Positions 43,669 to 64,000 of a stretch of DNA of 64,000 nt are shown in pieces. The stretch is from Calditrichales bacterium. Its GTDB lineage: Bacteria > Calditrichota > Calditrichia > Calditrichales > J004. How positions within the stretch are numbered: position 1 is the first letter of the stretch; every line of letters starts with the position of its first letter. The notes beneath the pieces were generated by a model. It ran no database searches. It had not been told where the DNA came from and saw only the letters and a list, made by a program, of their open reading frames with translations. The stretch covers positions 10,733 to 74,732 of the forward strand of contig WGCN01000013.1 of assembly GCA_015493745.1 (NCBI GenBank), written 5' to 3'. The translations under genes and the position numbers were made by a program.

Positions 43669-44394
43669 TTATAGTTTATTAAACATACTGGCAAACCGCA
43701 GTTTCCATACCAGAAAGATGGCTTCCCACATAATTGACTTGGACAGTTTGGATACACCTGCCACCCGGTCGATGAAGATAATAGGAATCTCTTTAATACG
43801 AAAACCTTTTTTCCAGGCCCGGAAGGTCAGCTCGATCTGAAAAGCGTAGCCGTTGGATTTAATTTCCTTGAAATTAATACTTTCCAAAACTTCACGGCGG
43901 AAGCACTTAAAACCGCCCGTGGCGTCCTGCACGGGTAAACCGGTGGCGATGCGTGAATACATATTGGCAAAGTAACTGAGCAACAGACGGCGCAAGGGCC
44001 AGTTGACCACATTAACCCCCTTGATATAGCGCGAGCCCAGAACCAGGTCATAATTTTCAATATTCTTCAGAAAAGCGGGGATTTCCTTGGGGTCATGGGA
44101 AAAGTCGGCATCCATTTCAAAAAGAAAATCATAGCCTTTGGACAATCCATACTTAAACCCGGCGATGTAGGCACTGCCCAGGCCCATTTTCCCCGGGCGG
44201 CTTAACAGATGAACCCGGCTATTATTTTGCTGTATCTCTTTCACCAAATCGGCCGTGCCATCGGGTGAGTTATCGTCCACGAATAGTATGTGCGCTTCGG
44301 GCTGATAGCGGTGAATGGCCTCCACAAGTTGCCGGACATTTTCACTTTCATTATAGGTGGGAACAATTATCAGCGCTTTGGAGGCATCAACCAT
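43669..44394 (-). CDS. polyprenol-phosphate mannose synthase (DPM1/Ppm1-like GT2)
   Basis: 241 aa. [31 protein letters not shown]. 8-nt overlap with rfbD. Confidence 0.85.
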
Positions 44395-45289
44395 GGCTAT
44401 CCACCAATCTTATTTTTAATCGTTGCAGGCCGGAAGGAACATCCCCCGGTTCCCAATCGATACGGTTCACCAGCTTATCGATAACAAAGGAAGAGTTCAT
44501 GGGCCTCGGCGCCAGTTGCTGCAGTTGATCGCTGGTGATCTGTTCAATCAGACCGGCATCAAAACCAAAAACATCGGCAATTTTCAAGGCAAAATCGTAC
44601 CTGCTGACAGTCTCGGAACCACTCACATGGAACAGACCGTACTCCCGTCTTTCCAGCAGGCGGTATATACTTTCACTCAGATCATCCACATAGGTCGGGT
44701 TGCCGGTTTGATCGGTAACCACCCTAATATTTTTGGCCGATGACAAACGGCTGATAACCCAGGTGGCAAAGTTGTGTTTAAGGTCTTTGCCATAGCCGTA
44801 CAACACCTGCGTGCGGGCTATGATATGCTGAAAAGGACATTGCTCAACGATTTTTTCCGCGGCCAGTTTGCTGCGGGCGTAATTACCGGACGGACGGGGT
44901 TCATCTTTTTCCGTATAGTTGCCCTCATGGCCGTCAAAAACATAGTCCGTGGATACTTGTACCAGTACCGGCTCAAACCCTACACAGCTATCAATAATAT
45001 TTTCAACGGCGCGCACATTGCTGGCCCAGCACCCTTCCGGGTCTTTCTCGCAACCATCGACATCGGTATAGGCGGCGGCATTGACAATAATATCCGGACG
45101 GTGCCGATCCAGAAAATCCTTCATGCCGGCCCGGTTGCTCATATCGACCGATGTGTATCTTTCATCGGCCAGGCTGCTTTTGTTTTCAGCCCCCCGGCTG
45201 GCGGCATACAGGTCATATCTGTTTTTGAAACGTTCAACTATGCTTTGTCCCAGAAGACCGTTCGAACCAAAAACTACAAGTTTATTCAT
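44387..45289 (-). CDS. rfbD: dTDP-4-dehydrorhamnose reductase
   Basis: 300 aa. [10 protein letters not shown] Rossmann motif. [17 protein letters not shown] (YxxxK). Confidence 0.85.
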
Positions 45290-45352
45290 CCATTATCCAT
45301 TGGCGTTAAAAAGAGAAAGGAAATTTAGCAAATTGAACCATTTACTGCAATC

Positions 45353-45814
45353 TTATGAAAGCCTGCTTCCGCTTTCCTTAAAGGTCTTCAGACGACGGGC
45401 CATGGATTCATCGGTTAAACTGAAAAGCTGCGCGGCAAAAACCACGGCATTGCGCATTCCGGCTTTACCGACGGCAAAGGTGGCCACCGGCACACCCGCG
45501 GGCATTTGCACCGTGGAGAGCAAGGCATCCACGCCATCCAACACACCGCCGGGCAGGGGCACCCCCAAAACGGGTAATGTGCTGTGGGCGGCTACCGCTC
45601 CGGCCAGATGAGCGGCCATGCCGGCCGCGGCAATGATGGCGCTATATCCTTTTTCCCGGGCTTCCCGGCAGAAGGCGCTCACCTTGTCCGGATTGCGGTG
45701 GGCGGAGCTTACCTGTACGTCATACTCCAGATTAAAATATTCCAAATAGCTTTTTGCCGCATCCACAAAGGGCAAATCGCTTTTGCTACCTAATAAAATG
45801 GCTATCCTGGGCAT
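45353..45814 (-). CDS. purE: 5-(carboxyamino)imidazole ribonucleotide mutase
   Basis: 153 aa. [22 protein letters not shown]. Confidence 0.9.
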
Positions 45815-45863
45815 CTTGTTTCCTGTGGTTTGTTGATTTTCGTTTACTTGAATTCCGCGGCTT

Positions 45864-46916
45864 TCACGGCCCGTCCTGTTTCAGGCTGTCCTTTGGGGCG
45901 GCGAATGAAAAGGTGTGGGCGATCACTTCCAGTTGATCCAGAAACGGTGTTTTCTTTTTACTGGGGGCCATCACCGAAAGATCCAGTGCATAGTACGGCC
46001 CCTGCCCTTCCTTTTTAAAATAATAGGTACGGAACGGACCGCCCACAAGCAGCCCGGGGTTGACCCATGATCCGCTTATTTTAATGGCTTCTTCCCCGTT
46101 GAAGGTCACCGTATCCATAATGACATCCTCGGTAACCACCGTATCTCCGCTATAGTATTTTTTAGCCATGCGGTCCCGCTCGGCGATAAAATCCAGGCGC
46201 CCGGGCTGCGCGGGCAGGCTGTCGGCCCGCCACACGGAAAGGGAACGATCCGGGGAGATGCGCCGCAGCCAGATATATTGTGTGGCCGGATCGCTGGTGG
46301 CTAAAAAGTAGTCGTGCTGCACCCGGATACGATAGCCAAAGGTCTCGGCAATAATATCTTCCACCTCAAACTGCTCAGCCGTATCGAACATGGTTCTTTC
46401 AAGACGGGCAAAGTATTTTTTCCGGAAGCGTTCCAGCATTTCCCGGCGCAGACGCTTGAACTGGAGTTTGAAGGTGGGTACATCCCGGGCCATCATAAAC
46501 AGGCTTATCTGATGCCGGGCAAAGAGGTCATCCTTAAAAAAGTAAAAGTTTTTATCTTCGTTGACGTTCTTTATAAACTCCGCCGGTATCACCTTTAACA
46601 GATAGTCATTCACCTCGGAACCGGGCCGGGTGGTGCCGATAAAAAAGAGGTTCATGCGCATATTATAGGCCTCCAGTTCCCGCAAAGGTTTCCAGGTAAC
46701 TATAAAACTGCGCTCGGCCTTGGGGGTGGCCACAAAATCATTAAAGTAAAGTTCGACATCCCTGCCGACTTCATTCCACAACAAAGAATCGGCGAAGACA
46801 AAAACACGGTGTTGCAGGCCCAGGCTTTCGGGACGCATGTCCAGATTGCATTGCCACGTCAGCATAGCACTTACCAGAACCGTCAGGGCGGTAAATGTCT
46901 TATAAACTTTCTTCAA
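45864..46916 (-). CDS. hypothetical lipoprotein (DUF4837-like by recollection)
   Basis: The track start (46976) is a TTG deep inside the upstream gene. TTG at 46916 gives (M)KKVYKTFTALTVLVSAMLTWQC, a plausible lipoprotein signal. The family name is a weak recollection. Confidence 0.55.
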   Translation of the reverse strand: MKKVYKTFTALTVLVSAMLTWQCNLDMRPESLGLQHRVFVFADSLLWNEVGRDVELYFNDFVATPKAERSFIVTWKPLRELEAYNMRMNLFFIGTTRPGSEVNDYLLKVIPAEFIKNVNEDKNFYFFKDDLFARHQISLFMMARDVPTFKLQFKRLRREMLERFRKKYFARLERTMFDTAEQFEVEDIIAETFGYRIRVQHDYFLATSDPATQYIWLRRISPDRSLSVWRADSLPAQPGRLDFIAERDRMAKKYYSGDTVVTEDVIMDTVTFNGEEAIKISGSWVNPGLLVGGPFRTYYFKKEGQGPYYALDLSVMAPSKKKTPFLDQLEVIAHTFSFAAPKDSLKQDGP

Positions 46917-47883
46917 TGGCTTCAATCTCCTTCTGTTTGGATTTTTTACGCTGAACCATAAACAAAAATCCACCAAAAATGGATATGAACATGGGAATGA
47001 TAACGTTCATGAAAGATAGAGAAATCGCACCGGCATTAGCAACACCTACTTTGCTTAAAAAGAAAATATAGCCCCCGTCACGAAAACCGACGCCGTTGAT
47101 CGAGGGCAACATGGTTAAAAGAAAGGTAACCGGAACCACAAGGAAAAGGTAGACCAGTCCCACCTTAAGCTGAAAGGCCCATACCAGGGCCCAATTCATT
47201 AAAACGATTGACGCCTGCGAAAGTACCGAAAGAACAAAAACGGACAAAAGAACGCCGCGTCGGTCTTTTAACATATGTATGGCGCCGATCATTTTATTAA
47301 ACCGCTCCCCGATACGCAGCAGGGTAAAACGGTCGAACAGGCGTAAAAGGAATTTAAAGGGCCGGTCCCGGAACATGAGAACAAAAAAGATGATTATGGC
47401 CACGAAAAGCACTATGGTCATGATCATCAGCCGGCTGTCCCGGTAAAAACGGCTGACATAAAAAAGGGCCAGGATGGACAGGAACAGGGTGGCCGCAATA
47501 CCCAGCAACCGTTCGATAATCACCGAGGAAAAGGCCAGGGTTCGGTCATCGGACTCATCCGCCACCCGGTAAATACGCACGATATCCCCGCCGATACTGG
47601 TTGGCAGAAAGTTGTTAAAAAACATACCGATCAGGTAGATACCGTAAAGACGGGACAGGCCGTATTCCAAGTGAAAGGCTTGCAAAACGATCTGCCAGCG
47701 CCAGGCCAGAAAGCCAACGCTGACAAACCCGGCGATCAGGGCATAGAACAGATAGACCAGGCGATCCTGACTATAGACATTACCCAATACCTGCAATACC
47801 TGCCGCGGATCGGAAATCCAAACCAGATAAGAGAACAGACCCAGCGAAATCCCCACTTTAAGGAGATTCTTGAGTAAACGCAT
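46900..47883 (-). CDS. UPF0104 / lysylphosphatidylglycerol-synthase-TM-like (flippase-like) membrane protein
   Basis: 327 aa with about 8 TM helices. FFNNFLPTSIGGDIVR motif typical of the TIGR00374 family. 3 nt after the DUF2723 gene. Confidence 0.75.
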   Translation of the reverse strand: MRLLKNLLKVGISLGLFSYLVWISDPRQVLQVLGNVYSQDRLVYLFYALIAGFVSVGFLAWRWQIVLQAFHLEYGLSRLYGIYLIGMFFNNFLPTSIGGDIVRIYRVADESDDRTLAFSSVIIERLLGIAATLFLSILALFYVSRFYRDSRLMIMTIVLFVAIIIFFVLMFRDRPFKFLLRLFDRFTLLRIGERFNKMIGAIHMLKDRRGVLLSVFVLSVLSQASIVLMNWALVWAFQLKVGLVYLFLVVPVTFLLTMLPSINGVGFRDGGYIFFLSKVGVANAGAISLSFMNVIIPMFISIFGGFLFMVQRKKSKQKEIEAIEESL

Positions 47884-47886
47884 CCC

Positions 47887-50529
47887 TTAGTTCTTTAATC
47901 GCGATTCCAGTTGGCGTTTCATTTGCAGCGCCGCCCGATCGCCCGGATGGGTTTCCAGCCATTTATCCAAAGCGCCAATGGCTTTATCCAATTGATTGGA
48001 AAGCTCGTAGGCATTTACCAGTAAACCGACGGTTTCCGCGCTGTTGGGGTTGGCTTCGTAGGCTTTTTCCGCCAAACGCGCCGCCTGAGCGGGTTCCTGA
48101 ACATTCATCATCAAAACACGGGCAATACTTAAAATCTTGCGCGGTCGACTTTCCCGGGCCAACACCGTATCCACATAGGAAGAATCCAGCATGATCCTGA
48201 AAGCATCCCGGTAGTCCGTCAACAATGAGCGTCCCCAGGGAATTACCGTCTCGGGTATCTGTTCATCCATATAGTCCAGTAACCGGGCCATTTTTGTTTT
48301 GTCCTGTTCCACACGGGCATAATACTCGGCCAGTTGGATGAATGCCGTACGGTAGTTCTGCAACAGGCTTATGATACTGGGATTGTAATAAACATCCGGG
48401 TCCTGAAAGCGGTAACGGTAAGCCTGCGTCAGGTTGCGTTCGATTCTTTGCGGGTCTATGGCCCAATCCTTGAAAGGAACCACCTTTAAAACCAAACCTT
48501 CCATGCGCATATATTCCGAAAGGCCGCCCACCAGATTGTCCCGGGGGACGGTGGTGGCAAAATATACCGGTTTTTTCCAGCGATTGGCTGTCAAAATATT
48601 CAGAATCATAAAATCCTGAACACGCAGAAAATTGTAAGGCCCGCTGGTAAAAGTGGGCTTGACGCGGAATTTAATTTCCTTGGGCGGAGCCACCGGTATT
48701 CGGCGGAAGGAGGACGCATACTCCTTAAGGGTGCTGTCCGCCACATAGGGAGGTACCTTAAGGGTTACATCCTGTGTTTTCCAGGGCATCAGCGTGATAT
48801 TCTTTATCATATCGTCGCTCATGTTCATCGGCACGCGCGGTTTCAGATCGCGCAGCTGCTCGATGTACCAATCCGTGTTTAACAGACTGAGGTTTACAAT
48901 CCGCACATCGGTGCGCACACCTTCCACCTCCTGCAAATACCACAGGGGAAAGGTGTCATTATCCCCGTTGGTGAACAGGATGGCGTTGGGCTCGCAGGAC
49001 ATTAGCATATTGTAGGAATAGTCCGCCGCCACATAATTGCCGCTGCGGTTATGTGTTTTATAATTCTTGGCCAGCATTTGTATGGGAGAAGCCAACATAA
49101 GAACCACAAAGGTGGCCAGCATGATACCGGAACCGATTTTTTGGGTTTTATCCTTGAACGATTCCCGTATCATCTCCATGATACCGGCAAAGCCCAGCCC
49201 GACCCAAATACTAAAGGCAAAAAAACTGCCCACGTAACTATAGTCCCTCTCCCGCGGTTGCGGATCCGGCTGATTGAGATAGAGAATGATGGCCAGACCG
49301 GTGGCAAAGAACAAGGCCAGTACCGCCAGGGCATGCTTCGGGTCCCCCCGGAAGTGAAAGATCATCCCCAACAGGCCTATCAACAGGGGCAGACCCAGGA
49401 ACTGCCAGTTCCACCGACCGCTTACGGGGTCCATGCCCACAAACTGCCACAGAAAATAGCGGCTATACATTTTATTAACCTGATACTTCCAAAAGAACTC
49501 ATTGACACTGGCATACTGCCTGCCATTGGGGGAAGATTTCCAAATCTGGGTACGGTTAAAGGGACTGCTTTCGCCATACTGTTCGCGGTTGATGTAGCTT
49601 AAAAATTTCTCCGCCGTTTCGGGATTGTTTTCATCAATATTGGGATTCAGGCTGGAACGGATTACAATCATGGCATAGCTGGAGTAACCGATCATGATCA
49701 GCGTCAGGGATAGCATGATAAAACTGAGCAGGTGGCGTTTTTGGGTGACGGCATAATAGGCGCCGGCCAATACCGCGGCAAAAACAATAAACAGCCAGTA
49801 AAAACCGCCACGGGCCACCAGCGGGAGATACTTAACCACCCCCGGATAGATAACGGCCATGATAACCACCGTTATCACGGTCATAATAATAAAGTTTTTG
49901 GTGTTGAACTCATAGCGCTTATAAAAATAGATCATGGCCACAAAGGGGATGGCCAGCACATTCAGCAAATGCACCGAAATGGCCAGACCCACCAGATAGG
50001 CTATCATCAACAGATATTTCTCGTTGTTTTCTTCTTCGGATTTTTCCGCCCATAACAGGGAGAGCCACACCAGCAGGGCCGTGAAAAGCATCGAGGCGGC
50101 ATAGACTTCCGCTTCCGCGGAATTAAACCAGAAACTGTGGGTAAAAGCAAACGTGAGCGAACCGATTATACCGGAAAAAATGGCGGTTTGCCAATCCTCG
50201 GTGGATTCCAGCTTGCCGCCTTTCCACTCACGCACCAGTTGCACGATGGAAAGATAAAGGAACATAATGGTCAGGGCGCTGGAGATCACGGAAATCATAT
50301 TAACACGGAAAGCCACATCACCGGGGATGGGCAGCATACTGAAGACCCGTCCCACCAGCAGAAAAAGAGGCGATCCCGGCGGGTGGGGCACGGCCATCCT
50401 GAAGGCGGTGGCGATAAACTCTCCACAATCCCAAAAGGAAACGGTCGGCGCCACGGTCATGGTATAAATCACCAGCGTAAAAAGCAGGATCAGACCCGCT
50501 ACAATTCGGTTCGTTTTAATCCAGTCCAT
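47887..50529 (-). CDS. DUF2723-family GT-C-fold glycosyltransferase (TMEM260/PMT-like) with C-terminal TPR region
   Basis: 880 aa. N-terminal SFWDCGEFIATAFRMAVPHPPGSPLF motif. About 11 TM helices in the first ~480 aa. Soluble C-terminal half ends in TPR-like helices. Confidence 0.8.
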   Translation of the reverse strand: MDWIKTNRIVAGLILLFTLVIYTMTVAPTVSFWDCGEFIATAFRMAVPHPPGSPLFLLVGRVFSMLPIPGDVAFRVNMISVISSALTIMFLYLSIVQLVREWKGGKLESTEDWQTAIFSGIIGSLTFAFTHSFWFNSAEAEVYAASMLFTALLVWLSLLWAEKSEEENNEKYLLMIAYLVGLAISVHLLNVLAIPFVAMIYFYKRYEFNTKNFIIMTVITVVIMAVIYPGVVKYLPLVARGGFYWLFIVFAAVLAGAYYAVTQKRHLLSFIMLSLTLIMIGYSSYAMIVIRSSLNPNIDENNPETAEKFLSYINREQYGESSPFNRTQIWKSSPNGRQYASVNEFFWKYQVNKMYSRYFLWQFVGMDPVSGRWNWQFLGLPLLIGLLGMIFHFRGDPKHALAVLALFFATGLAIILYLNQPDPQPRERDYSYVGSFFAFSIWVGLGFAGIMEMIRESFKDKTQKIGSGIMLATFVVLMLASPIQMLAKNYKTHNRSGNYVAADYSYNMLMSCEPNAILFTNGDNDTFPLWYLQEVEGVRTDVRIVNLSLLNTDWYIEQLRDLKPRVPMNMSDDMIKNITLMPWKTQDVTLKVPPYVADSTLKEYASSFRRIPVAPPKEIKFRVKPTFTSGPYNFLRVQDFMILNILTANRWKKPVYFATTVPRDNLVGGLSEYMRMEGLVLKVVPFKDWAIDPQRIERNLTQAYRYRFQDPDVYYNPSIISLLQNYRTAFIQLAEYYARVEQDKTKMARLLDYMDEQIPETVIPWGRSLLTDYRDAFRIMLDSSYVDTVLARESRPRKILSIARVLMMNVQEPAQAARLAEKAYEANPNSAETVGLLVNAYELSNQLDKAIGALDKWLETHPGDRAALQMKRQLESRLKN

Positions 50530-50618
50530 AAAGAATGTATTCCCAATTAACGTTTAAAAGTAAGCAAGCACGGAAAGTAGTAAATCCATAGAACCATATC
50601 AAGCTAAAAACAGTTCCG

Positions 50619-50646
50619 TAAATATTTGAAAATCCGGGGATGTCAA
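50619..50646 (-). promoter_or_regulatory. candidate sigma70-type promoter (TTGACA, 16 nt, TATTTA) upstream of the DUF2723 gene
   Basis: -35 at 50641-50646 and -10 at 50619-50624, about 90 nt upstream of ATG 50529. Confidence 0.4.
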
Positions 50647-50713
50647 TACAAAAAACCGCTGCCTGATATATTCTGTCCGGGGCTATTATCCCTTTCCCTT
50701 TTCTATTTTGTAT

Positions 50714-51763
50714 TTAGTTTTTTTCCCGGCGAAAGCTTTTGATACAGCGGTAGGGCATCATTTTGCGCACAAAGTGATCGATAACCACGCTGCCGGGATA
50801 CATGTTGCGGATAATGGCGCTATCGCTGACCCTGCGCCCGGACTGTACCGCCCTTCTCTTCCGCCAGATAAAAACCGGATGGGTAAACACAAACAGCAGG
50901 GCATCGAGCACCGCGCGGGAACGTTTACCGTCCCACATCAGGATATCGGCCAAAACCGTGGCCATTTCAAAAAGGACACGAACGGGAAAAAAGAGTATCA
51001 GAGACCGCAGGGCATAGTTTTTCAGCATCATTATCAGATTGTTACGGTGGTTCAGATACATTTTACGCTGGTTATCGCTGCGCAGGGTGTATCCGGAGTA
51101 GTGATAGATATGGGTGTCGTAACACACCACATTGCGGTAACCGGCCAGCTGGGCCCGCCAATTCCAGTCGATTTCTTCCTGGTGGGCAAAAAAATCTTCA
51201 TCCAGCAGGCCGATTTCATCAGCGACCGTTTTGCGCAACAACAATGCGCAACCGGAAGTCCAGAACACCTGTCCTTCCATGTTGTCATACTGCCGCCGGT
51301 CTTTTTCCACCGTGTCAAATATGCGTCCGCGGGCAAAGGGATAGCCAAACCAGTCCATTTCCCCCCCGGCGCCGCCGGAATAATCAAAGTAGTCATGATC
51401 CTGTATGGAAATGATTTTGGGTTGCACGGCACCAATCGTCTTATCGGCATGAATGGTGTTATACATCTCCCGCAAAAAATTCTCCGGCATGACCGTATCG
51501 TTGTTTAACAACAAAACAAAAGGAGAGGCGGCCATTTCCAGGCCCTGATTACAGGCCCCGGCATAGCCCTTATTCTCGCTGTTTTCAATCAACCGCACCT
51601 GCGGATAATTGCGGCGCACAAAGTCCGGGCTGCCGTCGGTGGAGCCGTTATCGATTAACAGAGTCTCAAAATCCTTAAAACTGTTCCGGTACAGGGAATC
51701 CAGACAGTCTTTTAGAATGTCGATGCCGTTATAATGGGGAATTACAATGGTTATACTTGCCAC
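50714..51763 (-). CDS. family 2 glycosyltransferase
   Basis: 349 aa. GTG start. TIVIPHYNG, IDNGSTDGS, LLNNDT (DxD-like). Confidence 0.85.
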   Translation of the reverse strand: MASITIVIPHYNGIDILKDCLDSLYRNSFKDFETLLIDNGSTDGSPDFVRRNYPQVRLIENSENKGYAGACNQGLEMAASPFVLLLNNDTVMPENFLREMYNTIHADKTIGAVQPKIISIQDHDYFDYSGGAGGEMDWFGYPFARGRIFDTVEKDRRQYDNMEGQVFWTSGCALLLRKTVADEIGLLDEDFFAHQEEIDWNWRAQLAGYRNVVCYDTHIYHYSGYTLRSDNQRKMYLNHRNNLIMMLKNYALRSLILFFPVRVLFEMATVLADILMWDGKRSRAVLDALLFVFTHPVFIWRKRRAVQSGRRVSDSAIIRNMYPGSVVIDHFVRKMMPYRCIKSFRREKN

Positions 51764-55805: not shown

Positions 55806-57299
55806 TTATTTGCTTTCCGGTCGCATTTGCGGGAAGAAGAGTACATCCCGGATGCTGGATTGATTGGTCATCAGCATGGTCAGGCGATCTATGCCGATCC
55901 CCAGGCCCGCCGTCGGGGGCATGCCGTATTCAATGGCCCGCAGAAAATCCTCATCGAGAACCTGCGCCTCTTCATCCCCGCGGTCACGTAATTTCATCTG
56001 ATCTTCAAAGCGCCGGCGCTGATCGATCGGATCATTGAGCTCACTAAAGGAGTTCCCGATCTCCTTGCCGCCGATAATCGGTTCAAACCGCTCCACCAAA
56101 CCGGGTTTGGAACGGTGTTTTTTTGCCAAAGGCGACATCTCCACCGGATGATCGATGATGAAGACGGGCTGGATCAGTTTTGGTTCCACATATTCACCGA
56201 AGATTTCATCAACGATTTTGGCGGCTCCCATATCGGGGGAAAGCTCGACATTAAGCTCTTCGGCGATCTTTCTCAACTTCGCCTCATCCAGGGAAGAAAC
56301 ATCCTTGCCGGTATATTTTTCTATGGCTTCCAGAATGGGCAGGCGCGTCCAGGGTGGCGCCAGGTCGATCTGATGACCGGCAAACTCTATTTTAGACGTA
56401 CCATGCACCTCCATGGCGATGTGATTGAACATCTGCTCCACAAACTCCATCATCCAGTTATAATCCTTATAGGCCACATACAGCTCCACCTGGGTAAATT
56501 CCGGGTTATGAAAGCGGTCGATGCCTTCATTGCGGAAATCCTTGGCAAATTCATAAACCCGGTCAAAGCCGCCCACGATCAGCCGTTTCAGATAAAGCTC
56601 ATTGGCGATCCGCAGATAGAGCGTCATATCCAATGTGTTGTGATGGGTTTTAAACGGACGCGCCGCCGCCCCGCCATAGATGGGCTGCAAAACCGGCGTT
56701 TCCACCTCCAGGAAGTCATGCTTGTTTAAAAAATCACGCATGGCGGTTATAATTTTGGAACGCTTCACAAAAACATCCTTGACATGCGGATTGACCACCA
56801 GATCCACATAACGCTGGCGATAGCGCAGTTCCTTATCCGCAAACTGATCATAAATGATTTTTTTACCATCCTCGATCTTTTCCTTGGCAATGGGCAGGGG
56901 ACGAATGGACTTGGATAGCAGTTCCAGAGAAGAAGCAAACACGGACACTTCACCGGTTTTTGTTTTCTTTACCGTACCCTTTACGCCGATAAAGTCGCCG
57001 ATATCCAGGCTTTTAAACAAGGCATAGCGGTCGGTCCCCACAACGTCCCGGGCGATATAGAGCTGAATGCGCCCCTGCATATCCTGAATATGGCAAAAAC
57101 TGGCCTTACCCATTTTACGCACGGCCATGATGCGTCCGCTTACGGCAACTTCCTTACCCTCCAGTTGCTCAAAGTTCGCCACAACTTCAGCCGACTGATG
57201 GCTGCGATCGAAGGAATAGGGATAGGGATTGATTCCCTCGTCATAAAGCTGTTGCAGTTTTTCTTTTCTTACTTTTACAAGTTGATTGACATCTTCCAC
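55806..57299 (-). CDS. lysS: lysine--tRNA ligase (class II)
   Basis: 497 aa. GTG start with GGAG 7 nt upstream. [14 protein letters not shown]. 12 nt after prfB, the same prfB-lysS order as in E. coli. Confidence 0.95.
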
Positions 57300-57311
57300 T
57301 TTTTACTCCAC

Positions 57312-58413
57312 TTAACTGTTTCCAAAATTGACCAGGTATGATTTTATAAAGGCATCGATATCACCGTCCATTACCGCCTGGGTATTGCTGGTTTCTTCAT
57401 TGGTGCGGTGATCCTTAACCATGTTGTAGGGATGAAAAACATAGCTGCGAATCTGGCTGCCCCAGGCAATATCCTTTTTCGCGCTCTCCATCTCCTTATA
57501 TTTTTCCTTTTGCTCCTCCAACTGTTTTTGATAGAGCTTGGCCGCCAGAATTTTCATGGCATTGGCCCGGTTTTGATGTTGCGACCGTTCGTTTTGGCAT
57601 TGCACGACAATGCCCGTGGGTAAATGGGTTATGCGAATGGCCGAGTCGGTCTTGTTCACATGCTGACCGCCGGCGCCGCTGGCCCGGTAGGTATCCACGC
57701 GCAAATCGGCCGGATTAATCTCGATATCTATGCTCTCATCAATCTCCGGCAACACAAACACCGAGGCAAACGACGTGTGTCTTCTTTTGTTCGAATCAAA
57801 GGGTGAAATACGCACCAGGCGGTGCACACCGGCCTCGGCCTTCAGATAGCCATAGGCGTAGGTGCCCTGTATTTCGATGGTTACACTTTTTATACCCGCT
57901 TCATCCCCGGATTGCAGATCCATTATTTCCGTTTTAAAGCCTTTTCTTTCCGAATAGCGCAGATACATGCGCATAAGCATTTCCGCCCAGTCCTGGCTTT
58001 CCGTTCCGCCCGCGCCGGGATGGATGGTTAATATGGCATTGTTTTTATCATGCTCGCCGCCCAGCATGCGTTTAAATTCAAGCTCCGAAACCGCTTTTTT
58101 CAGATCGGACAGCGCTTTTTCAAAATCCTTTTCTATTTCGGGATCGGGGGATTCTTCATTCATCTCCAGTAAAATCTGGGCATCTTCCGCATGGCTTTTG
58201 GCCTGATTCCAGGCCTCTATCCAATCCTTACGGCTGTTTATCTCCGCATATATCTGTTTTACCGCTTTTTTATCATCCCAAAAACCGTCGGCCGTGGTTC
58301 GGGCTTCCAGCCCGGCAAGTTCTTTTTCTTTTGTATCCAGGTCAAAGATGCCTCCGCAGATCGGAAAGCTTCACGGAAAGGGATTTAAATAACTGGACAA
58401 GGTCATTATTCAT
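57312..58413 (-). CDS. prfB: peptide chain release factor 2 (requires programmed +1 ribosomal frameshift)
   Basis: The track shows only 57312..58163. Hand translation from ATG 58413 gives MNNDLVQLFKSLSVKLSDLRRHL then an in-frame TGA. Shifting +1 at CTT TGA C continues DLDTKEKELAGLEARTTADGFWDDKKAVKQIY... into the track ORF. SPF and GGQ motifs are present (RISPFDS, SGAGGQHVNKTDSA). Confidence 0.9.
58341..58355 (-). other. RF2 autoregulatory +1 frameshift site
   Basis: Minus strand reads GGAGG CAT CTT TGA C. The internal SD-like GGAGG (58351-58355) lies 3 nt before the CTT slippery codon (58345-58347), followed by UGA (58342-58344) and then C. Confidence 0.85.
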
Positions 58414-58497
58414 GGTTTATGTTCTTTATAATTACTGGTAAAAGATGGGTAATTTAGGGGATATAAAAAATGCAGGCAAGAAAAGAGGCATATAAAT

Positions 58498-58525
58498 AAA
58501 AAAAGCTGCCCGAAACCGGACAGCT
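58498..58525 (-). terminator. rho-independent terminator ending the six-gene envelope operon
   Basis: Minus strand AGCUGUCCGGUUUCGGGCAGCU forms a stem of about 9 bp with one mismatch, followed by U7. Confidence 0.6.
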
Positions 58526-58546
58526 TTATAAAAATTTTGGCACTTA

Positions 58547-59683
58547 TTAGAAGTCACCGCCTTCATCTTCAAGAATTTGTTTCAACTCTTCCAGTTCCTG
58601 TTCGGCGGCTTCGCGCTCTTCCTGGAGCTTATCGAGTTCTTCCTTGATATTTTCGGATTTTTCACGTTCCTCGATAATTTCCTGGAAAAACTCCACGCGC
58701 TTGTTAAACTGTTTTTGCTGAACAGCGGCCGGACTGTTTCCAACGGCATCGGTGAGAGGAAGCAGGGTCAGTTCAAAACCCAGGTGTGCTTTCCAGGCCG
58801 TATAGTTCGGCAGACCGACGCTTTCATACTTGTTAACACCCACACTTTCATCCACATCGGAACTGACACGGATATCAACGCCCAGGTTAAAATTGAACCA
58901 GCTAAACGGCTTATACTTTATGCTGGGGGTCAGGTATGTCCAGTTTTCACGGGCATATACAAACTCATCGGGCTGGGTAAGATAGCTTAAGCCAAAGACT
59001 TCCAGTTGAAAATCAAACATATCGGTCGGGTATACAAAGCCGATGGCATAATTCAAGGCATTGGAGTTAACCGTGGCAAATTTATCCTTATACACTTCGG
59101 TACCGGCCTCATTGTAGTTCCACCATCCCACGGTAAGGTGAGCGCTCAGGCTGCGATCGGGAAGATAGGGATCGGCGTAGTAGGACAAAATACCGCTGAC
59201 GCCATACTCAACCGCGCCACTGGCATAGTAGGTAAAAGGGTAGTTATGATCTTCACCCAGGGGGAAGCGTGTGCCCACCGTAAAACCGGCGTACATGCTT
59301 CTGTCGGCAAAGTCAAAGGAGCCGACTTTGGCAAAAACGCGGATATCATCCGGGAGATTGTATTCATTCGGAGTGTGGGTATCCTGGTAAAGACCGGGAA
59401 TAACGGTAATATCAAAATGATCGACAACTCCGTAGGTCAGAGACAGGGCGCTGTTGACCAGCCAATAGTTGGCCGCTTTGAAATTCGCCGGCTTCAAAGT
59501 CTGATTACCGACAAACTCGGCAAGCTTGGTAAAAAAGTTCATATCCGTCCGCACTTCAAACCGTCCCGGCTCAAAAGTACGTGCCGTTTGAGTATTTAAT
59601 AAACTTTTACTGCCTGTCGGCGCTTGTGCAAAAGTTAGTGAAAAAAGTGCGCTTATCAGCAGATAGTAGCTGATTCTTTTCAT
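58547..59683 (-). CDS. outer-membrane beta-barrel protein with C-terminal charged coiled coil (paralogue 2)
   Basis: 378 aa. Signal peptide ...LFSLTFAQA. Beta-strand-rich body. C-terminus EEREKSENIKEELDKLQEEREAAEQELEELKQILEDEGGDF. AGGAGG SD. Confidence 0.7.
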   Translation of the reverse strand: MKRISYYLLISALFSLTFAQAPTGSKSLLNTQTARTFEPGRFEVRTDMNFFTKLAEFVGNQTLKPANFKAANYWLVNSALSLTYGVVDHFDITVIPGLYQDTHTPNEYNLPDDIRVFAKVGSFDFADRSMYAGFTVGTRFPLGEDHNYPFTYYASGAVEYGVSGILSYYADPYLPDRSLSAHLTVGWWNYNEAGTEVYKDKFATVNSNALNYAIGFVYPTDMFDFQLEVFGLSYLTQPDEFVYARENWTYLTPSIKYKPFSWFNFNLGVDIRVSSDVDESVGVNKYESVGLPNYTAWKAHLGFELTLLPLTDAVGNSPAAVQQKQFNKRVEFFQEIIEEREKSENIKEELDKLQEEREAAEQELEELKQILEDEGGDF

Positions 59684-59713
59684 TGCGACCTCCTAAACAT
59701 GATAGAGACGTTT

Positions 59714-60859
59714 TTATTCATCATCTAATAATTTTTTAAGTTCTTCAATTTCCTTCTCGGCATTCTTACGAATACTCCTGAGGTTTTCAATTTCGTCCTG
59801 GACGGCTTCGGCTTTTTCCTTCTCTTCAATGACGGTTTCAAACAGTTCTACCTGTTTTTTGGCCTTGGCCTGCTGATAATTTATAACACTTGTTTTTTCC
59901 GAGGAAAGAACATTCAGATTGACATTAAAACCCATGTGTACCCGCCAGTCGGGAAAGTTGGGCGGCAGATCGACGGTGGAGCTGATATCGGGAATACCGC
60001 TGGTATTATTTCGGTCAGCGGGTGAAACACGAAAATCCATACCAAAATCGGTGGAGAGCCATTTAAAAGGCTTATAACGGATGCTGGGCGAGATAAAAGC
60101 CCACTCTTCCGCGCTATAGACATAGGGGTCTGGCTGCTGAATAAACAGTATACCGGTCAATTCCATCCTGAAATCAAACAATCCGGTGGGATAGCTGAAA
60201 GCCAGGGCCATGCGAAAATCACTGGAATTTACGGTGGCCTTCAAGGTATTGCCATTGGGATAGGTATACAGGGTGGTTCCCAACTCATTATAATTCCACC
60301 AACCGGCGTTAAAGTGTGCGTTAAACCCGCGCTCGGGCAGATAGGGATCGGCATAGTATGAAACGGCATACATAAAGGCATACTGAAAAGAAGCCGGAGC
60401 AAACTCGGTAAAAGGATAGTTATGCACCTCACCCGTCGGGAAACGGAAACTGGTTAAAAAACCCTGGGAAAAGTGATTACGTCCGAATTTAAATCCGCCG
60501 GCCTTGACGGTCAGAAAGATATCATCTGGGAAATTAAATTCATTGGGGTAATGGGTATCCTGATAGGCGCGCACGGCCAGGGTTGCATCCAGATGTTCCA
60601 TTATGCCATAGGTAAAAACGGCGTTACCGGCCACCAGCCAGTAGTTCACCGCCTGAAAATTGGCCGGTGTCAGGCCCTGTCCGATAAAATCGCCAACCTT
60701 AGAGTAAAAGTTCATTTCACTGTAAATACTCAACTGTCCGGGCTCATAGGTACGCCCTGTTTGAGTATAGTAAAATGTCCTTTCACCATTGGGCAATTGC
60801 GCAAAGGACAACTGAACTAATATGAAAAAACTGAGAATTGTAACAATGTTCTTTTTCAT
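59714..60859 (-). CDS. outer-membrane beta-barrel protein with C-terminal charged coiled coil (paralogue 1)
   Basis: 381 aa. Signal peptide ...LVQLSFAQ. About 70 of 136 residues are identical to 58547..59683 in a gap-free hand-aligned block (PANF.A.NYWLV...YQDTH.PNE.N.PDDI...HNYPFT...SYYADPYLP.R...GWWNYNE.GT.LY). C-terminus EEKEKAEAVQDEIENLRSIRKNAEKEIEELKKLLDDE. Confidence 0.7.
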   Translation of the reverse strand: MKKNIVTILSFFILVQLSFAQLPNGERTFYYTQTGRTYEPGQLSIYSEMNFYSKVGDFIGQGLTPANFQAVNYWLVAGNAVFTYGIMEHLDATLAVRAYQDTHYPNEFNFPDDIFLTVKAGGFKFGRNHFSQGFLTSFRFPTGEVHNYPFTEFAPASFQYAFMYAVSYYADPYLPERGFNAHFNAGWWNYNELGTTLYTYPNGNTLKATVNSSDFRMALAFSYPTGLFDFRMELTGILFIQQPDPYVYSAEEWAFISPSIRYKPFKWLSTDFGMDFRVSPADRNNTSGIPDISSTVDLPPNFPDWRVHMGFNVNLNVLSSEKTSVINYQQAKAKKQVELFETVIEEKEKAEAVQDEIENLRSIRKNAEKEIEELKKLLDDE

Positions 60860-60927
60860 TCAAGACTCCTACAGTCTTTTTTAAGCATAAAGGTGAAAAA
60901 TTTAAACAAAAACCTCGTAATAAGAAA

Positions 60928-61416
60928 CTATTTCACACGTGATGCTAAAACAAACACGTTTGCAATAATAGCTAAATCTCGCATTAAACCGACAAATCTT
61001 GAAAAAATATCCTGAATACTTCCGGCGACGATTATGGTATCCCCCGGTTGTAGCTGAGGTAACAAACTGTTATCACCGGTTTTCAGGAATTGTTCGATGT
61101 CAACTTTAATAACTTCCTGGTTCTTCCGTACGATCCGAACGTCATTCATCCGCGCCGTACTCAGAGGGCCCCCGGCTGATGATATTAAATCGATCAGGGT
61201 GTAGAAACTGGGAATACTGTAAATGCCCGGTCGACCCACATGCCCCCATAAATTGACATTTACTAAAAGTATATCGCCACTTCCGAGGATATATTGAGCA
61301 GGTTTATCAGAAAATTGTGAAGATGCCGCATTAAATTGCGGTACCTGGTCAAAAGATTGTGCAAAAGAGAAATTAAATGCGCCTATAACAAAAAAAATGA
61401 GTAGCGTTTTTTTCAT
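60928..61416 (-). CDS. small polysaccharide-export-like protein (Poly_export/SLBB, mini-Wza)
   Basis: 162 aa. Signal peptide. YILGSGDILLVNVNLWGHVGRPGIYSIP (Poly_export motif) and LQPGDTIIVAGS (SLBB end). C-terminal hydrophobic helix LAIIANVFVLA. The start abuts the upstream stop. Confidence 0.7.
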   Translation of the reverse strand: MKKTLLIFFVIGAFNFSFAQSFDQVPQFNAASSQFSDKPAQYILGSGDILLVNVNLWGHVGRPGIYSIPSFYTLIDLISSAGGPLSTARMNDVRIVRKNQEVIKVDIEQFLKTGDNSLLPQLQPGDTIIVAGSIQDIFSRFVGLMRDLAIIANVFVLASRVK

Positions 61417-62184
61417 TTAGTTACCCCAATCAATAGAAAAAGTAGCCCAGTCCGATTCAGATCCATTGTGAAGCGGGTCCCCCGCCAGCAAGTCGACACG
61501 CCACCTGTACTCAACATCATCTTGAAAAACCTGTAGCTCCCGGTTATTCATTGTATATGTAAATTGTGTTTGTCCAAAGCCACCTTGCAGGGGATTTTCC
61601 ATGTACAGATAGACCAATTCCCTGAAATTGGCACCAATCAGGCGTTCAATGCGGAATATATAGCCGTTTGGAAAAGCATCAGAAGGAACGTTAAAGGTAA
61701 ATCCTAAACTATCCGGTTTAACTACCCGCCCTTTTGGAAAACCCGGTGTCGCTTTGGGCAATAAATTATACCAAACCGTATCCGAAGGCAAGCTCTCTTT
61801 TCCCTCATCATTCACGGCGGTTATAAAATAGTAATACTTTGTAAAAATAGACAGGGAATCCAGATCCACAAAAGTGGTGTCATCGTTATTTTCCGCTTCC
61901 TGCTGCCCGATAAAGCGATAGTTGGCCAGCCCTTGCGGATCCTGGGAACGGTATATTTTATATCGGGCCACCCCTTGCGTTGAGGGCTGGCGGTACCACA
62001 TGATACGTATGGCATTTTCACGACGCGCCACGGCGTCAATACCGCGCTCATTTAAGGTTGTATCCGCCCCGGCTTCTTTTTGCACCATCCGCGGCGCATC
62101 CGGCGCCTTGGAGGTATCGGATCCCGTGGGCGTACACGCCCACATCAGCCCGGCAAGCACTAAGATGTAAAAAACTTTTTTCAT
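61417..62184 (-). CDS. lipoprotein with fibronectin-type-III-like domain(s)
   Basis: 255 aa. Lipobox in VLAGLMWACTP. IRIMWYRQPSTQGVARYKIYRS...YYYFITAVNDEGKESLPS is FN3-like. ATGA overlap with the PorV stop. Confidence 0.7.
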   Translation of the reverse strand: MKKVFYILVLAGLMWACTPTGSDTSKAPDAPRMVQKEAGADTTLNERGIDAVARRENAIRIMWYRQPSTQGVARYKIYRSQDPQGLANYRFIGQQEAENNDDTTFVDLDSLSIFTKYYYFITAVNDEGKESLPSDTVWYNLLPKATPGFPKGRVVKPDSLGFTFNVPSDAFPNGYIFRIERLIGANFRELVYLYMENPLQGGFGQTQFTYTMNNRELQVFQDDVEYRWRVDLLAGDPLHNGSESDWATFSIDWGN

Positions 62185-63173
62185 AATTGAAATAATAATG
62201 ATATCCTATAGGTATTTCCCAGATCATGGCTCTGATAGGCTATGTCTGTACGTAATTTCCAAATATATAACCCCATGCCGGCCGTAAAGTTACTTTCATT
62301 AAGCCCGACACGCAGGGCAAGAAGTTGGTCATATAATAATTCGGCCCCAAAATGGCTGGCCCCTTCGTAGCGGCTGTCCAGATCAAAGGCAAAGGTAAAC
62401 TGACTGCTTACAAAATCCAGCGGTTGAATTATGGCAAAACCATATTTGAAATTACGTGAAATAACATCCGTCCGTTTGGAGGCGGTATCCCAGGTAAGCT
62501 TGGTTTCAAACAGATCCTGAGCATTTATTCCAAAAACCAATTTACCATAATTTTCATCATTAAACACATCATTCAGGCCTAATTTTATAATCATGCCCAA
62601 ATCCACACCGATGCCGTTTCCGGAATTGGTATCGATGCTTTCCCGAATCACCTTGATGTTACCGCCGAAGCCAAAATCTATGGGCAGTTCAAAATATTGC
62701 CAGCCTAAATCCACCAATACCTGTTTATATTTGGCAAAGCTGAAGACAAAAGCATCGCTGGCTGCGGAGAAATAACCGGTCGGCTCACCGATCAACTGAT
62801 CAAACTGGTCACCGTTAACACGGTCGTCATCGGGATTAAAGCCGGGATAGCGTGGAATATCATCCACGCTCAGGCGCATCCAGGAAGCGGAAATGGTTAC
62901 GCCGCCAAAAATGGGCATGGCCGCGCTTACAAAACTTTGGTTCTGCTGCTGATCAAACATATTGGCATACATGGAGGCTGCCTGAAAACTTTCAATAAAA
63001 GCCAGACCACTGGGATTCCAGTACCAGCCATAGGCGTCATCGGCAATGGCCACCGAAGCGCTGCCCATGCCCAGGGCCTTGGCGCCAACCCCTAATTCCA
63101 GAAATGAGCCGGCATATTCGCCGGCATTTATGCTGCTTGCATATATAATCAGAAGTGTTAATATTTTTCTCAT
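62181..63173 (-). CDS. PorV-type T9SS outer-membrane shuttle protein (paralogue 4 of 4; best PorV candidate because of its PorU-like neighbour)
   Basis: 330 aa. Signal peptide. GAKALGMGSASVAIADDAYGWYWNPSGLAF. Ends ...YRISLLFQL. ATGA overlap with the upstream CTD protein. Confidence 0.75.
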   Translation of the reverse strand: MRKILTLLIIYASSINAGEYAGSFLELGVGAKALGMGSASVAIADDAYGWYWNPSGLAFIESFQAASMYANMFDQQQNQSFVSAAMPIFGGVTISASWMRLSVDDIPRYPGFNPDDDRVNGDQFDQLIGEPTGYFSAASDAFVFSFAKYKQVLVDLGWQYFELPIDFGFGGNIKVIRESIDTNSGNGIGVDLGMIIKLGLNDVFNDENYGKLVFGINAQDLFETKLTWDTASKRTDVISRNFKYGFAIIQPLDFVSSQFTFAFDLDSRYEGASHFGAELLYDQLLALRVGLNESNFTAGMGLYIWKLRTDIAYQSHDLGNTYRISLLFQL

Positions 63174-64000
63174 TGAAGCCGCGCTATTTTAAGTTTCTTG
63201 GTCACATTAAATTTCTTACCGGTAAACTGGTCTTCAAACTCTGCCTTGATAAGCGCAAAATAAACGCCGTTGGCAACGTCATTGCCGTTATCATCGGAGC
63301 CATCCCATTCCAATTCATGATATCCGGTGTCCAGCAGCTTATCATCACTCTCCACATTGTTAGGCGCATGCAGCTGCTTGGAACGTATCAGATGCCCCGA
63401 TACCGTATAAATTCGCACACTCAAGCGGGAGAGGGGCCCGGTAAAACTGTTGGTATAGGATATGATGGTACTCTCGGCAAAAGGATTGGGATAGTTACCA
63501 TGTACTATAAGGTCATTTGATGCCGAGACGCTAAAAACACGCTCCACCTGCTGAACATTGCCATTGATATCCGATATGGAAATACTCAGGGAGTGATTAC
63601 CCCGTTCAAATTCCGGGGCCAGCAGCACGGCAATACTGTTGGCGCTTTCGATGGTGTCGGGTAAAACGATATCCGCATTGTCCAACACCACGTTATCCAG
63701 CTTGATTTCCAGACTTCCGTTCAGATCCACGCCGTTTTCATCCTGTAATAAAAAGGCCAGGGCCGGACGTGAACGCACCAGCATGTTATTGCGCAAGGGA
63801 CGACCGTTGGCGGTAATTTCAATTTGTGGCGCCTTACTGTCTTTAAAGCTAAACACACCATACAAGCCGTTTTGTGTTATCAAGGCCGTTAACCGGCTAT
63901 TGTCCCTCTCCGTGGCCACCTTTACCCATAAACCTAAATCGGGATTAAACCTGAAAAAGGAGATGGCTTCCCGTTCCGGCGGAGAATAGAGGGTTGCATC
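63170..64000 (-). CDS. C-terminal part of a large CTD-bearing protein, PorU (C25-type T9SS sortase)-like; gene continues beyond the right edge
   Basis: The reading frame is open from base 64000 (DATLYSPPEREAISFFRFNPDLGLWVK precedes the track GTG start). DSKAPQIEITANG...LLQDENGVDLNGSLEIKLD...GNHSLSISISDINGN resembles the pre-CTD region of PorU/C25 proteins as I recall it. CTD NYPNPFAESTIISY...VANGVYFALIKAEF. The catalytic domain is outside the window. Confidence 0.7.
   Translation of the reverse strand, partial: DATLYSPPEREAISFFRFNPDLGLWVKVATERDNSRLTALITQNGLYGVFSFKDSKAPQIEITANGRPLRNNMLVRSRPALAFLLQDENGVDLNGSLEIKLDNVVLDNADIVLPDTIESANSIAVLLAPEFERGNHSLSISISDINGNVQQVERVFSVSASNDLIVHGNYPNPFAESTIISYTNSFTGPLSRLSVRIYTVSGHLIRSKQLHAPNNVESDDKLLDTGYHELEWDGSDDNGNDVANGVYFALIKAEFEDQFTGKKFNVTKKLKIARLQ

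Follow-up and report, generated by a model that had tools for sequence, protein, structure and literature searches.

A PorU-linked set of envelope genes in Calditrichota points to a version of the type IX attachment machinery undescribed in Bacteroidota

The window analysed here is a 64,000-nucleotide stretch of contig WGCN01000013.1 from a Calditrichales bacterium. At its right-hand end, six co-directional minus-strand open reading frames (ORFs) run from the window edge to an intrinsic terminator and join the gene of a predicted T9SS (type IX secretion system) sortase of the PorU type to a barrel gene of the PorV/PorQ family and to four further envelope genes (Table 1). Start and stop codons overlap by four nucleotides in the ATGA manner at 63170-63173 (genes 1 and 2) and again at 62181-62184 (genes 2 and 3). 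Genes 3 and 4 abut at 61416/61417, and gaps of 68 and 30 nucleotides separate genes 4 and 5 and genes 5 and 6. The six-gene unit given in a preliminary description of this DNA, with its overlaps and gaps, matches the ORF coordinates, and the terminator said to close it is present as a hairpin running from 58527 to 58502 on the minus strand and followed by TTTTTATTTAT. This hairpin is the strongest terminator-like site within 57000-64000.

Table 1. Features of the six-gene unit, of its 3' flank and of other T9SS-related or glycosylation loci (coordinates are window positions)
Feature	Position	Strand	Description
Gene 1	63170-64000	-	Partial ORF, 276 aa visible, remainder beyond window edge
Gene 2	62181-63173	-	330 aa, predicted divergent PorV/PorQ-family outer-membrane barrel
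Gene 3	61417-62184	-	255 aa, lipoprotein with two tandem FN3 domains
Gene 4	60928-61416	-	162 aa, Sec signal peptide, one SLBB domain and hydrophobic C-terminal helix
Gene 5, barrel paralogue A	59714-60859	-	381 aa, signal peptide, 12-stranded barrel and C-terminal helix
Gene 6, barrel paralogue B	58547-59683	-	378 aa, architecture as paralogue A
Intrinsic terminator	58502-58527	-	11-bp stem with 6 GC pairs, 4-nt loop, T-rich tail
prfB	57312-58412	-	Classical programmed +1 frameshift site (CGGAGG CAT CTT TGA C) near 58345
283-aa ORF	57312-58163		Post-frameshift portion of prfB only
Glycosylation gene run	43669-51763	-	Between the near-canonical PorV region and recG
Near-canonical PorV	41336-42430	-	NF033710 247.9 bits (cut-off 250); NF033709 318 bits
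M6-like metalloprotease	38424-41270	-	T9SS-dependent, inactivated, with C-terminal sorting domain; NF052323 533 bits (cut-off 600)
Propeller protein	35278-38424	-	Peptidase-MA/TolB-like
Large type-A sorting-domain protein	20713-22917	-	
Large type-A sorting-domain protein	16198-20478	-	
CarboxypepD_reg+Plug outer-membrane protein	12188-15163	-	Precedes the 1111-aa protein and the PorQ-leaning barrel
1111-aa sorting-domain protein	8818-12153	-	No Pfam match; C-terminus like the C-terminal domains of PorZ and PorU
Third PorV/PorQ-family barrel	7735-8772	-	NF033709 158 bits; best equivalog PorQ, 78 bits

Gene 1 enters the window from the right, and its full-length properties were read from a 99.9%-identical contig. 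The gene 2 protein was found, identical, on 13 public contigs, six of which were compared (L001-L006, with 9-57 mismatches to the window over 10 kb); on these near-identical contigs the edge ORF is 1674 aa long. Its visible part contains Ig-like/CARDB-type repeats and a type-A C-terminal domain (CTD). This part matches positions 875-1094 of the PorU model NF033707 (E 1.2e-23), and its CTD scores 31.2 bits with TIGR04183 (cut-off 23) and 27.3 bits with PF18962. The full-length protein adds a Peptidase_C25 domain at residues 617-993 (PF01364, 296 bits, E 5.9e-88), besides a CARDB domain and the C-terminal sorting domain. In pairwise alignments, its FFGHGGG aligns with NYAGHGG of Porphyromonas gingivalis PorU (6za2) and NYTGHGS of RgpB (1cvr) at the histidine, and its SMTCFTG with ATCDF and VACVNG of the same two proteins at the cysteine. 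Given the C25 domain, the NF033707 match, and the alignment of both residues with catalytic ones, gene 1 is by prediction a PorU-type sortase-like protein with a His/Cys dyad, not ordinary cargo. The preliminary description had recognised a PorU/C25-type sortase ending in a type-A CTD from the visible fragment, with mere CTD cargo as the outcome if the ORF lacked a C25 domain; the full ORF bears out the sortase. The protein scores 321.6 bits on NF033707, under the 420-bit equivalog cut-off, so that by the NCBI threshold it is a diverged relative of PorU rather than an equivalog. Upstream of gene 1, the near-identical contigs carry the gene of a 1604-aa G8/CTD cargo protein and cdaA.

The barrel encoded by gene 2 aligns over residues 22-329 to positions 4-325 of the 326 in the PorV/PorQ family model NF033709, with 101.4 bits (cut-off 90). 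Its equivalog scores are 96.4 bits for PorV2 (NF052325, cut-off 325), 41.1 bits for PorV (NF033710, cut-off 250) and 23.1 bits for PorQ. A near-canonical PorV encoded elsewhere in the window shares 26% identity with it, so that a PorV distinct from the gene 2 barrel is encoded in this genome. On the family scores and this low identity, gene 2 is a predicted dedicated, divergent paralogue of the PorV/PorQ family and not canonical PorV; the earlier label of a PorV-type barrel is right as to the family but not as to PorV proper. NCBIfam holds a putative type IX sorting pair, PorU2 and PorV2 (NF052324, NF052325), and gene 2 scores higher on PorV2 than on PorV or PorQ, while the sortase also matches PorU2 (248.8 bits, equivalog cut-off 450). 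However, both scores are far under the equivalog cut-offs of that pair, and the sortase scores higher on classical PorU.

An AlphaFold2 (AF2) model of the gene 3 lipoprotein (pLDDT 89.8, pTM 0.82) is all-beta with two tandem FN3 domains, and the top Foldseek matches are tandem FN3 pairs. The Pfam fn3 match is weak (E 8e-4), and NCBIfam gives none. The lipoprotein character and the FN3 fold proposed earlier are retained, with two FN3 domains in place of one. The lipobox cysteine, Cys17, is kept in at least 90% of homologues, which show no variation in the motifs ERGIDA, YRWRVD and GSESDW. The protein is rare, with 32 homologues among 5.8 billion clusters, and all but one of those examined are encoded directly 3' of a PorU/PorV-like pair. 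The exception (L094, 962-12610) lies in a polysaccharide biosynthesis cluster with genes for Wzy_C, GT2, Bac_transf and UDP-glucose dehydrogenase. The protein encoded before it, of 476 aa and without annotation, has a signal peptide and ends in Phe, and there is no PorU, SLBB or barrel gene within 10 kb.

Gene 4 was identified through its SLBB domain (PF22461, 39.8 bits; PF10531, 37.0 bits; gathering cut-off 27 for both), which is preceded by a short YxLGxGD-like stretch. Its Sec signal peptide has no cysteine and the protein has no lipobox, hence it is not a lipoprotein, and no match to Poly_export (PES, PF02563) appeared at E up to 1. The only relatives of solved structure are OPX proteins, specifically class-3 OPX proteins and domain 2 of Wza, matched via the SLBB domain only (PDB 9n9a and 7xfd, and Wza); the domain also matches TIGR03027 and EpsY. 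Like Wza, gene 4 combines an SLBB beta-grasp domain with a helix that follows it at the C-terminus, and, as in class-3 OPX systems, a beta-barrel gene is the next one downstream (PMC9603273, PMC9601211). Unlike OPX/Wza proteins, it lacks Poly_export, has a single SLBB domain, is not lipidated, and has no PCP, Wzx or Wzy neighbours; the unit and its flanks are free of PCP, Wzx, Wzy or ABC polysaccharide genes, here as in about 90 related loci. The preliminary description had called the product a mini-Wza protein with a Poly_export/SLBB motif and a hydrophobic C-terminal helix, of which the SLBB domain and the helix hold good, but not Poly_export or membership of the Wza/OPX family.

The helix covers approximately residues 138-160. 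The last 25 residues are the best-kept part of the protein, and F138, R146, D147, N153 and R160 are invariant. Its best 19-residue window has a mean Kyte-Doolittle value of 1.75, equal to the signal peptide in hydrophobicity and far above the value of about -0.1 for the whole of the 35-residue peptide that we take to be domain 4 of Wza. No match to the Wza_C helix model PF18412 was found, though the C-terminal helix is present and conserved. By first principles, a helix of this hydrophobicity should halt translocation at SecYEG and leave the protein anchored in the inner membrane. The helix thus appears to fit a classical transmembrane anchor better than the amphipathic Wza_C helix, and an inner-membrane anchor seems no less probable than a Wza-type pore. 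With no lipobox, no Poly_export and a helix of transmembrane-like hydrophobicity, we rejected a mini-Wza outer-membrane helical pore as the default prediction.

Across Calditrichota the SLBB protein is 55-97% identical, and in Marinimicrobia-type members signal peptide, SLBB domain and hydrophobic C-terminal helix are all retained, with a mid-helix Gln. The nearest outgroup of the same architecture, 31% identical, is an SLBB-plus-C-terminal-helix protein in a bin labelled Cytophagia (L083, 8972-10537). Its gene lies approximately 0.5 kb 3' of an UpxY-family antiterminator (NF033644, 139.9 bits), and the contig stops just after it. UpxY antiterminators are usually the first genes of capsule loci in Bacteroidota.

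The two barrels encoded by genes 5 and 6 are paralogues with 45% identity to each other and have no Pfam or NCBIfam family. The AF2 model of paralogue A (pLDDT 79.8, pTM 0.71) has 12 long strands and a helix at 325-380. The best PDB folds found with Foldseek are the 12-stranded barrels FapF and NanC, at 6-10% identity, and a search of PDB sequences with the barrel profile gave only coiled-coil noise (GpsB, tropomyosin). The closest structural match, FapF, is the secretion channel for functional amyloid in Pseudomonas (Foldseek E 5e-7, TM-score by target 0.60). Both proteins combine a 12-stranded barrel with a periplasmic coiled coil, but the coiled coil is N-terminal in FapF and C-terminal here, the gene contexts differ, and at 6-9% identity the profile search detected no sequence homology. 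Assignment to PorP/SprF, PorQ, PorG or OmpA-like proteins was rejected for want of family matches.

Among 46 homologues, the C-terminal helix has a 3-4 heptad hydrophobic core at approximately 339-378, which agrees with the coiled-coil character foreseen for it. Residues L360 (98%), R364 (98%), E370 (100%) and L374 (96%) are invariant or almost so, and two core positions are occupied by conserved charged residues, E346 and R364. The trimerisation motif R-h-x-x-h-E was sought around R364, where the spacing does not fit. The preliminary description was correct about paralogous barrels with a charged, heptad-like helix, but the helix is approximately 56 residues long rather than about 40, which at 0.15 nm per residue corresponds to approximately 8 nm.

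An exhaustive profile search returned 229 representatives of the barrel family at 50% identity. The barrel is a member of a broader outer-membrane family that some lineages have brought into the PorU locus, since its distant members occur in unrelated neighbourhoods, are sometimes tandem, and in one case appear to carry a caspase-like domain. One tandem case (L088, 7685-11137) consists of two barrel-plus-coiled-coil paralogues preceded by a 262-aa small-barrel-like protein, with no PorU or SLBB gene near them; tandem duplication has thus happened more than once in the family. In the 607-aa member P0250, a C-terminal domain that by eye resembles caspase (peptidase C14) takes the place of the coiled coil.

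For the conservation of gene order, an alignment of the SLBB protein was scanned against one genome per GTDB species. This gave 77 loci, of which 76 are Calditrichota-type, including a few bins labelled as other taxa. Gene presence was scored by tblastn of the window proteins, with evaluable loci as denominators. Within the Calditrichota-type set, the lipoprotein is present in 69 of 70 loci, the PorV-like barrel upstream of it in 65 of 66, PorU in 56 of 58, and a barrel downstream of the SLBB gene in all 66. Two barrels are found in 34 loci and one in 23, and the single barrel of deep-branching loci best matches paralogue B. Gene order is still kept where PorU identity falls to approximately 30%. 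Named homologues belong to Calditrichota and include Calab_1377 of Caldithrix abyssi. Synteny of the flanking genes prfB and lysS is limited to a part of Calditrichota; a deep clade and other lineages have lost both from the neighbourhood. The module thus persists where its flanks do not.

The module also recurs beyond this phylum, with different flanks and PorU proteins only 24-30% identical. Twelve Marinimicrobia-type metagenome loci (L097-L108) have PorU, the PorV-like barrel, the lipoprotein and the SLBB protein wherever the contig reaches. In a bin labelled Marinimicrobia (L092), which follows this four-gene order, PorU is present as fragments along with the lipoprotein and SLBB genes, and a more distant locus (L109, 28% identity) has PorU, the PorV-like barrel and the lipoprotein before the contig ends. 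In two high-GC loci (L093, L095), PorU, the PorV-like barrel, the lipoprotein and a barrel are present with no SLBB gene in the module, and the module of L095 lies approximately 4 kb downstream of SprA_N, opposite a canonical PorV. All five gene kinds, namely PorU, PorV-like, lipoprotein, SLBB and barrel, are found in L096. The number of coiled-coil barrels per module is thus 0, 1 or 2. In L093 and L095, as in the window, the stop of the PorV-like gene is overlapped by the start of the lipoprotein gene. Large CTD-tagged proteins adjoin the module in members of Calditrichota and of the Marinimicrobia-like lineage, with protease-like cargo among them in the window. The order proposed for the window is thus kept throughout Calditrichota and outside it.

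The remainder of the window has further T9SS-type genes. Downstream of the near-canonical PorV lie the M6-like metalloprotease and, next to it, the propeller protein. At least three more type-A CTD proteins are encoded in the window. The two further large ones at the left, one with sortilin/BNR repeats, make it dense in T9SS-type cargo. The trio of a PorQ-like barrel, a CTD protein and a CarboxypepD_reg+Plug protein, found at the left of the window, also adjoins the module in L095 (12352-19743), and the 1111-aa CTD protein and its neighbouring barrel could be a PorZ/PorQ-like pair. The glycosylation run includes genes for a polyprenyl-phosphate-type GT2, rmlD, a flippase-like membrane protein, another GT2, and a TMEM260-like protein O-mannosyltransferase with tetratricopeptide repeats. 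On the 3' side of the terminator, the unit is followed by prfB, lysS, lolE, lolD and recG.

The locus is similar to the PorU-PorV-PorZ-PorQ attachment complex of Bacteroidota, as in P. gingivalis, and to the porU-porV arrangement also found in Flavobacterium johnsoniae. In each case, a C25 sortase has a His/Cys dyad and a type-A CTD of its own, and the sortase gene adjoins a PorV/PorQ-family barrel; CTD cargo and a near-canonical PorV complete the likeness in the window. Unlike the P. gingivalis complex, the sortase has 1674 aa, against 1156 residues in 6za2_A, and is under the PorU equivalog cut-off, the adjoining barrel differs from PorV proper, the unit lacks an equivalog of PorZ or PorQ, and three to four extra genes (the FN3 lipoprotein, the SLBB protein and the coiled-coil barrels) are fixed to the pair. 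The locus falls below the equivalog thresholds for PorU, PorV, PorQ, PorU2 and PorV2 alike. Genes 3-6 match no T9SS family in Pfam or NCBIfam at E up to 1, and none of them hit a characterised family with an unrelated role, in keeping with the claim that they correspond to no described T9SS component. We know of no counterpart for them among such components. Our full-text literature search returned nothing relevant on T9SS in Calditrichota or Caldithrix, on PorU2/PorV2, where the apparent hits were superscript reference marks, or on accessory genes of this kind. The genome paper of C. abyssi states only that a Bacteroidetes-type gliding machinery is absent.

Given the overlapping reading frames and a gene order that survives at 24-30% PorU identity, a functional unit is the best reading of the module. 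We therefore consider it probable that the locus is a non-Bacteroidota version of the T9SS machinery for cargo processing and attachment, in which a PorU pair works with an undescribed accessory set. Its constant core is PorU, a PorV/PorQ-family barrel of its own, the FN3 lipoprotein and the SLBB protein, with the coiled-coil barrels as a frequent fifth element. By analogy with PorV in Porphyromonas, surface retention of PorU would fall to the PorV-like barrel. This pair would have as its fixed partners the outer-membrane lipoprotein and the small protein whose SLBB domain would be periplasmic; Calditrichota and the high-GC lineage would add a single 12-stranded barrel or two of them, with a C-terminal coiled coil of approximately 8 nm in the periplasm on each. 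Together, these partners would form one envelope complex beneath PorU and the PorV-like barrel. Signs of specific helix contacts are seen in the SLBB membrane helix, which is the most conserved part of its protein, and in the invariant core residues of the coiled coil.

The PorU of P. gingivalis cuts off the CTD and attaches the cargo to anionic lipopolysaccharide (A-LPS) delivered by PorZ (PMC8545088). The most likely role of the accessory proteins would be the handling or presentation of an acceptor glycan or glycolipid onto which PorU transfers cargo. Such a glycan-related role is favoured because the sole family signal in the accessory proteins is an SLBB domain of the polysaccharide-export type, and because the SLBB outgroup and the lipoprotein outgroup both lie in polysaccharide loci. 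Alternatively, the same proteins may scaffold the attachment complex from the periplasmic side. The inner membrane may be where the SLBB protein is anchored by its helix, and the barrel stalks may extend in its direction, forming an assembly that would span much of the periplasm. In its geometry, such a trans-envelope arrangement seems reasonable: an SLBB protein anchored in the inner membrane would meet stalks of 8 nm and a lipoprotein whose two FN3 domains hang down from the outer membrane. A stronger form of this idea, which we put forward tentatively and regard as rather doubtful, is an envelope-spanning T9SS sub-complex in which an SLBB oligomer and the stalks serve as a conduit or scaffold that delivers lipid-linked glycan to the sortase, so that Fibrobacterota-Chlorobiota-Bacteroidota (FCB) phyla other than Bacteroidota would do the job of PorZ and A-LPS supply by an unrelated architecture. 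The main uncertainty is the mechanism, and we infer both the biochemical role and the trans-envelope idea.

Several observations weigh against a PorU-dedicated accessory complex of this kind. The Wzx, Wzy and PCP polysaccharide genes are absent inside the unit, and the SLBB protein is devoid of a Poly_export domain. No barrel occurs in the approximately 1.8-8 kb of downstream DNA of L097-L108, the SLBB and barrel genes are up to approximately 500 nucleotides apart in some loci, and the barrel family is also found in unrelated neighbourhoods with neither PorU nor SLBB (L084-L091), so that the barrel may be a general outer-membrane protein only sometimes linked to PorU. The candidate PorZ/PorQ-like pair elsewhere in the window implies that the accessory genes need not replace PorZ and PorQ. 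The membrane that receives the SLBB helix may be the inner or the outer one.

If the accessory proteins do not take part in glycan transfer to cargo, they might be structural, tethering or spacing the outer membrane relative to the peptidoglycan or the inner membrane at the attachment complex. We judge this unlikely, although several features would suit such a tether: a barrel helix that is long and charged and keeps its heptad core, an SLBB helix hydrophobic enough for an inner-membrane stop-transfer anchor, and a barrel-plus-coiled-coil family widespread near housekeeping genes, which one would expect of a general envelope protein. The best fold match, FapF, reportedly trimerises via its periplasmic coiled coil. 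No peptidoglycan-binding domain (OmpA_C, LysM or SLH) was detected in genes 3-6, and the near confinement of the lipoprotein and the SLBB protein to PorU loci argues for a PorU-specific role. The overlap of start and stop codons is difficult to reconcile with mere local inheritance of the order of unrelated envelope genes, an explanation that we regard as very improbable. Some order is certainly kept by descent alone, as prfB and lysS are also syntenic in part of Calditrichota, but these two are lost in the deep clade and in other lineages while PorU, the PorV-like barrel, the lipoprotein and the SLBB protein persist, and the module recurs with different flanks at low PorU identity.

Quite unlikely, in our estimation, is a third possibility, that the PorU/PorV-like pair alone belongs to T9SS and the lipoprotein, SLBB protein and barrels are a reduced OPX-plus-barrel device for export or assembly of a polysaccharide or glycolipid, co-transcribed merely because both act at the surface. 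The SLBB domain does match OPX proteins, one SLBB relative follows an UpxY antiterminator, and one lipoprotein homologue lies amid polysaccharide genes, as described above. Class-3 OPX proteins work with a separate beta-barrel, encoded directly downstream (PMC9601211, PMC9603273). However, these partner barrels are 16-18-stranded and PgaA/GfcD-like (PMC9603273), whereas the barrels here have 12 strands and a coiled coil. Moreover, the SLBB protein has no Poly_export domain, the approximately 90 loci have no PCP, Wzx, Wzy or ABC export genes in or beside the unit, the barrel is missing from the Marinimicrobia-type module, and the lipoprotein start overlaps the PorV-like stop even in the high-GC loci.

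Type IX secretion has, to our knowledge, been worked out almost wholly in Bacteroidota, and its attachment step, with PorU, PorV, PorZ, PorQ and A-LPS, is known to us from one organism. A fixed set of undescribed envelope genes linked to PorU in Calditrichota and in a Marinimicrobia-like lineage points to a version of the attachment machinery that is undescribed in Bacteroidota. The barrel with a C-terminal coiled coil is in itself a sizeable family for which Pfam and NCBIfam have no model. Calditrichota and the Marinimicrobia-like lineage are both plentiful in the ocean and in marine sediments. Should the partners work with PorU, they would define how these phyla process or anchor their secreted proteins, would be candidates for parts of the route, still poorly understood, by which acceptor reaches the sortase, and would give a marker gene set by which this T9SS variant may be recognised in metagenomes.

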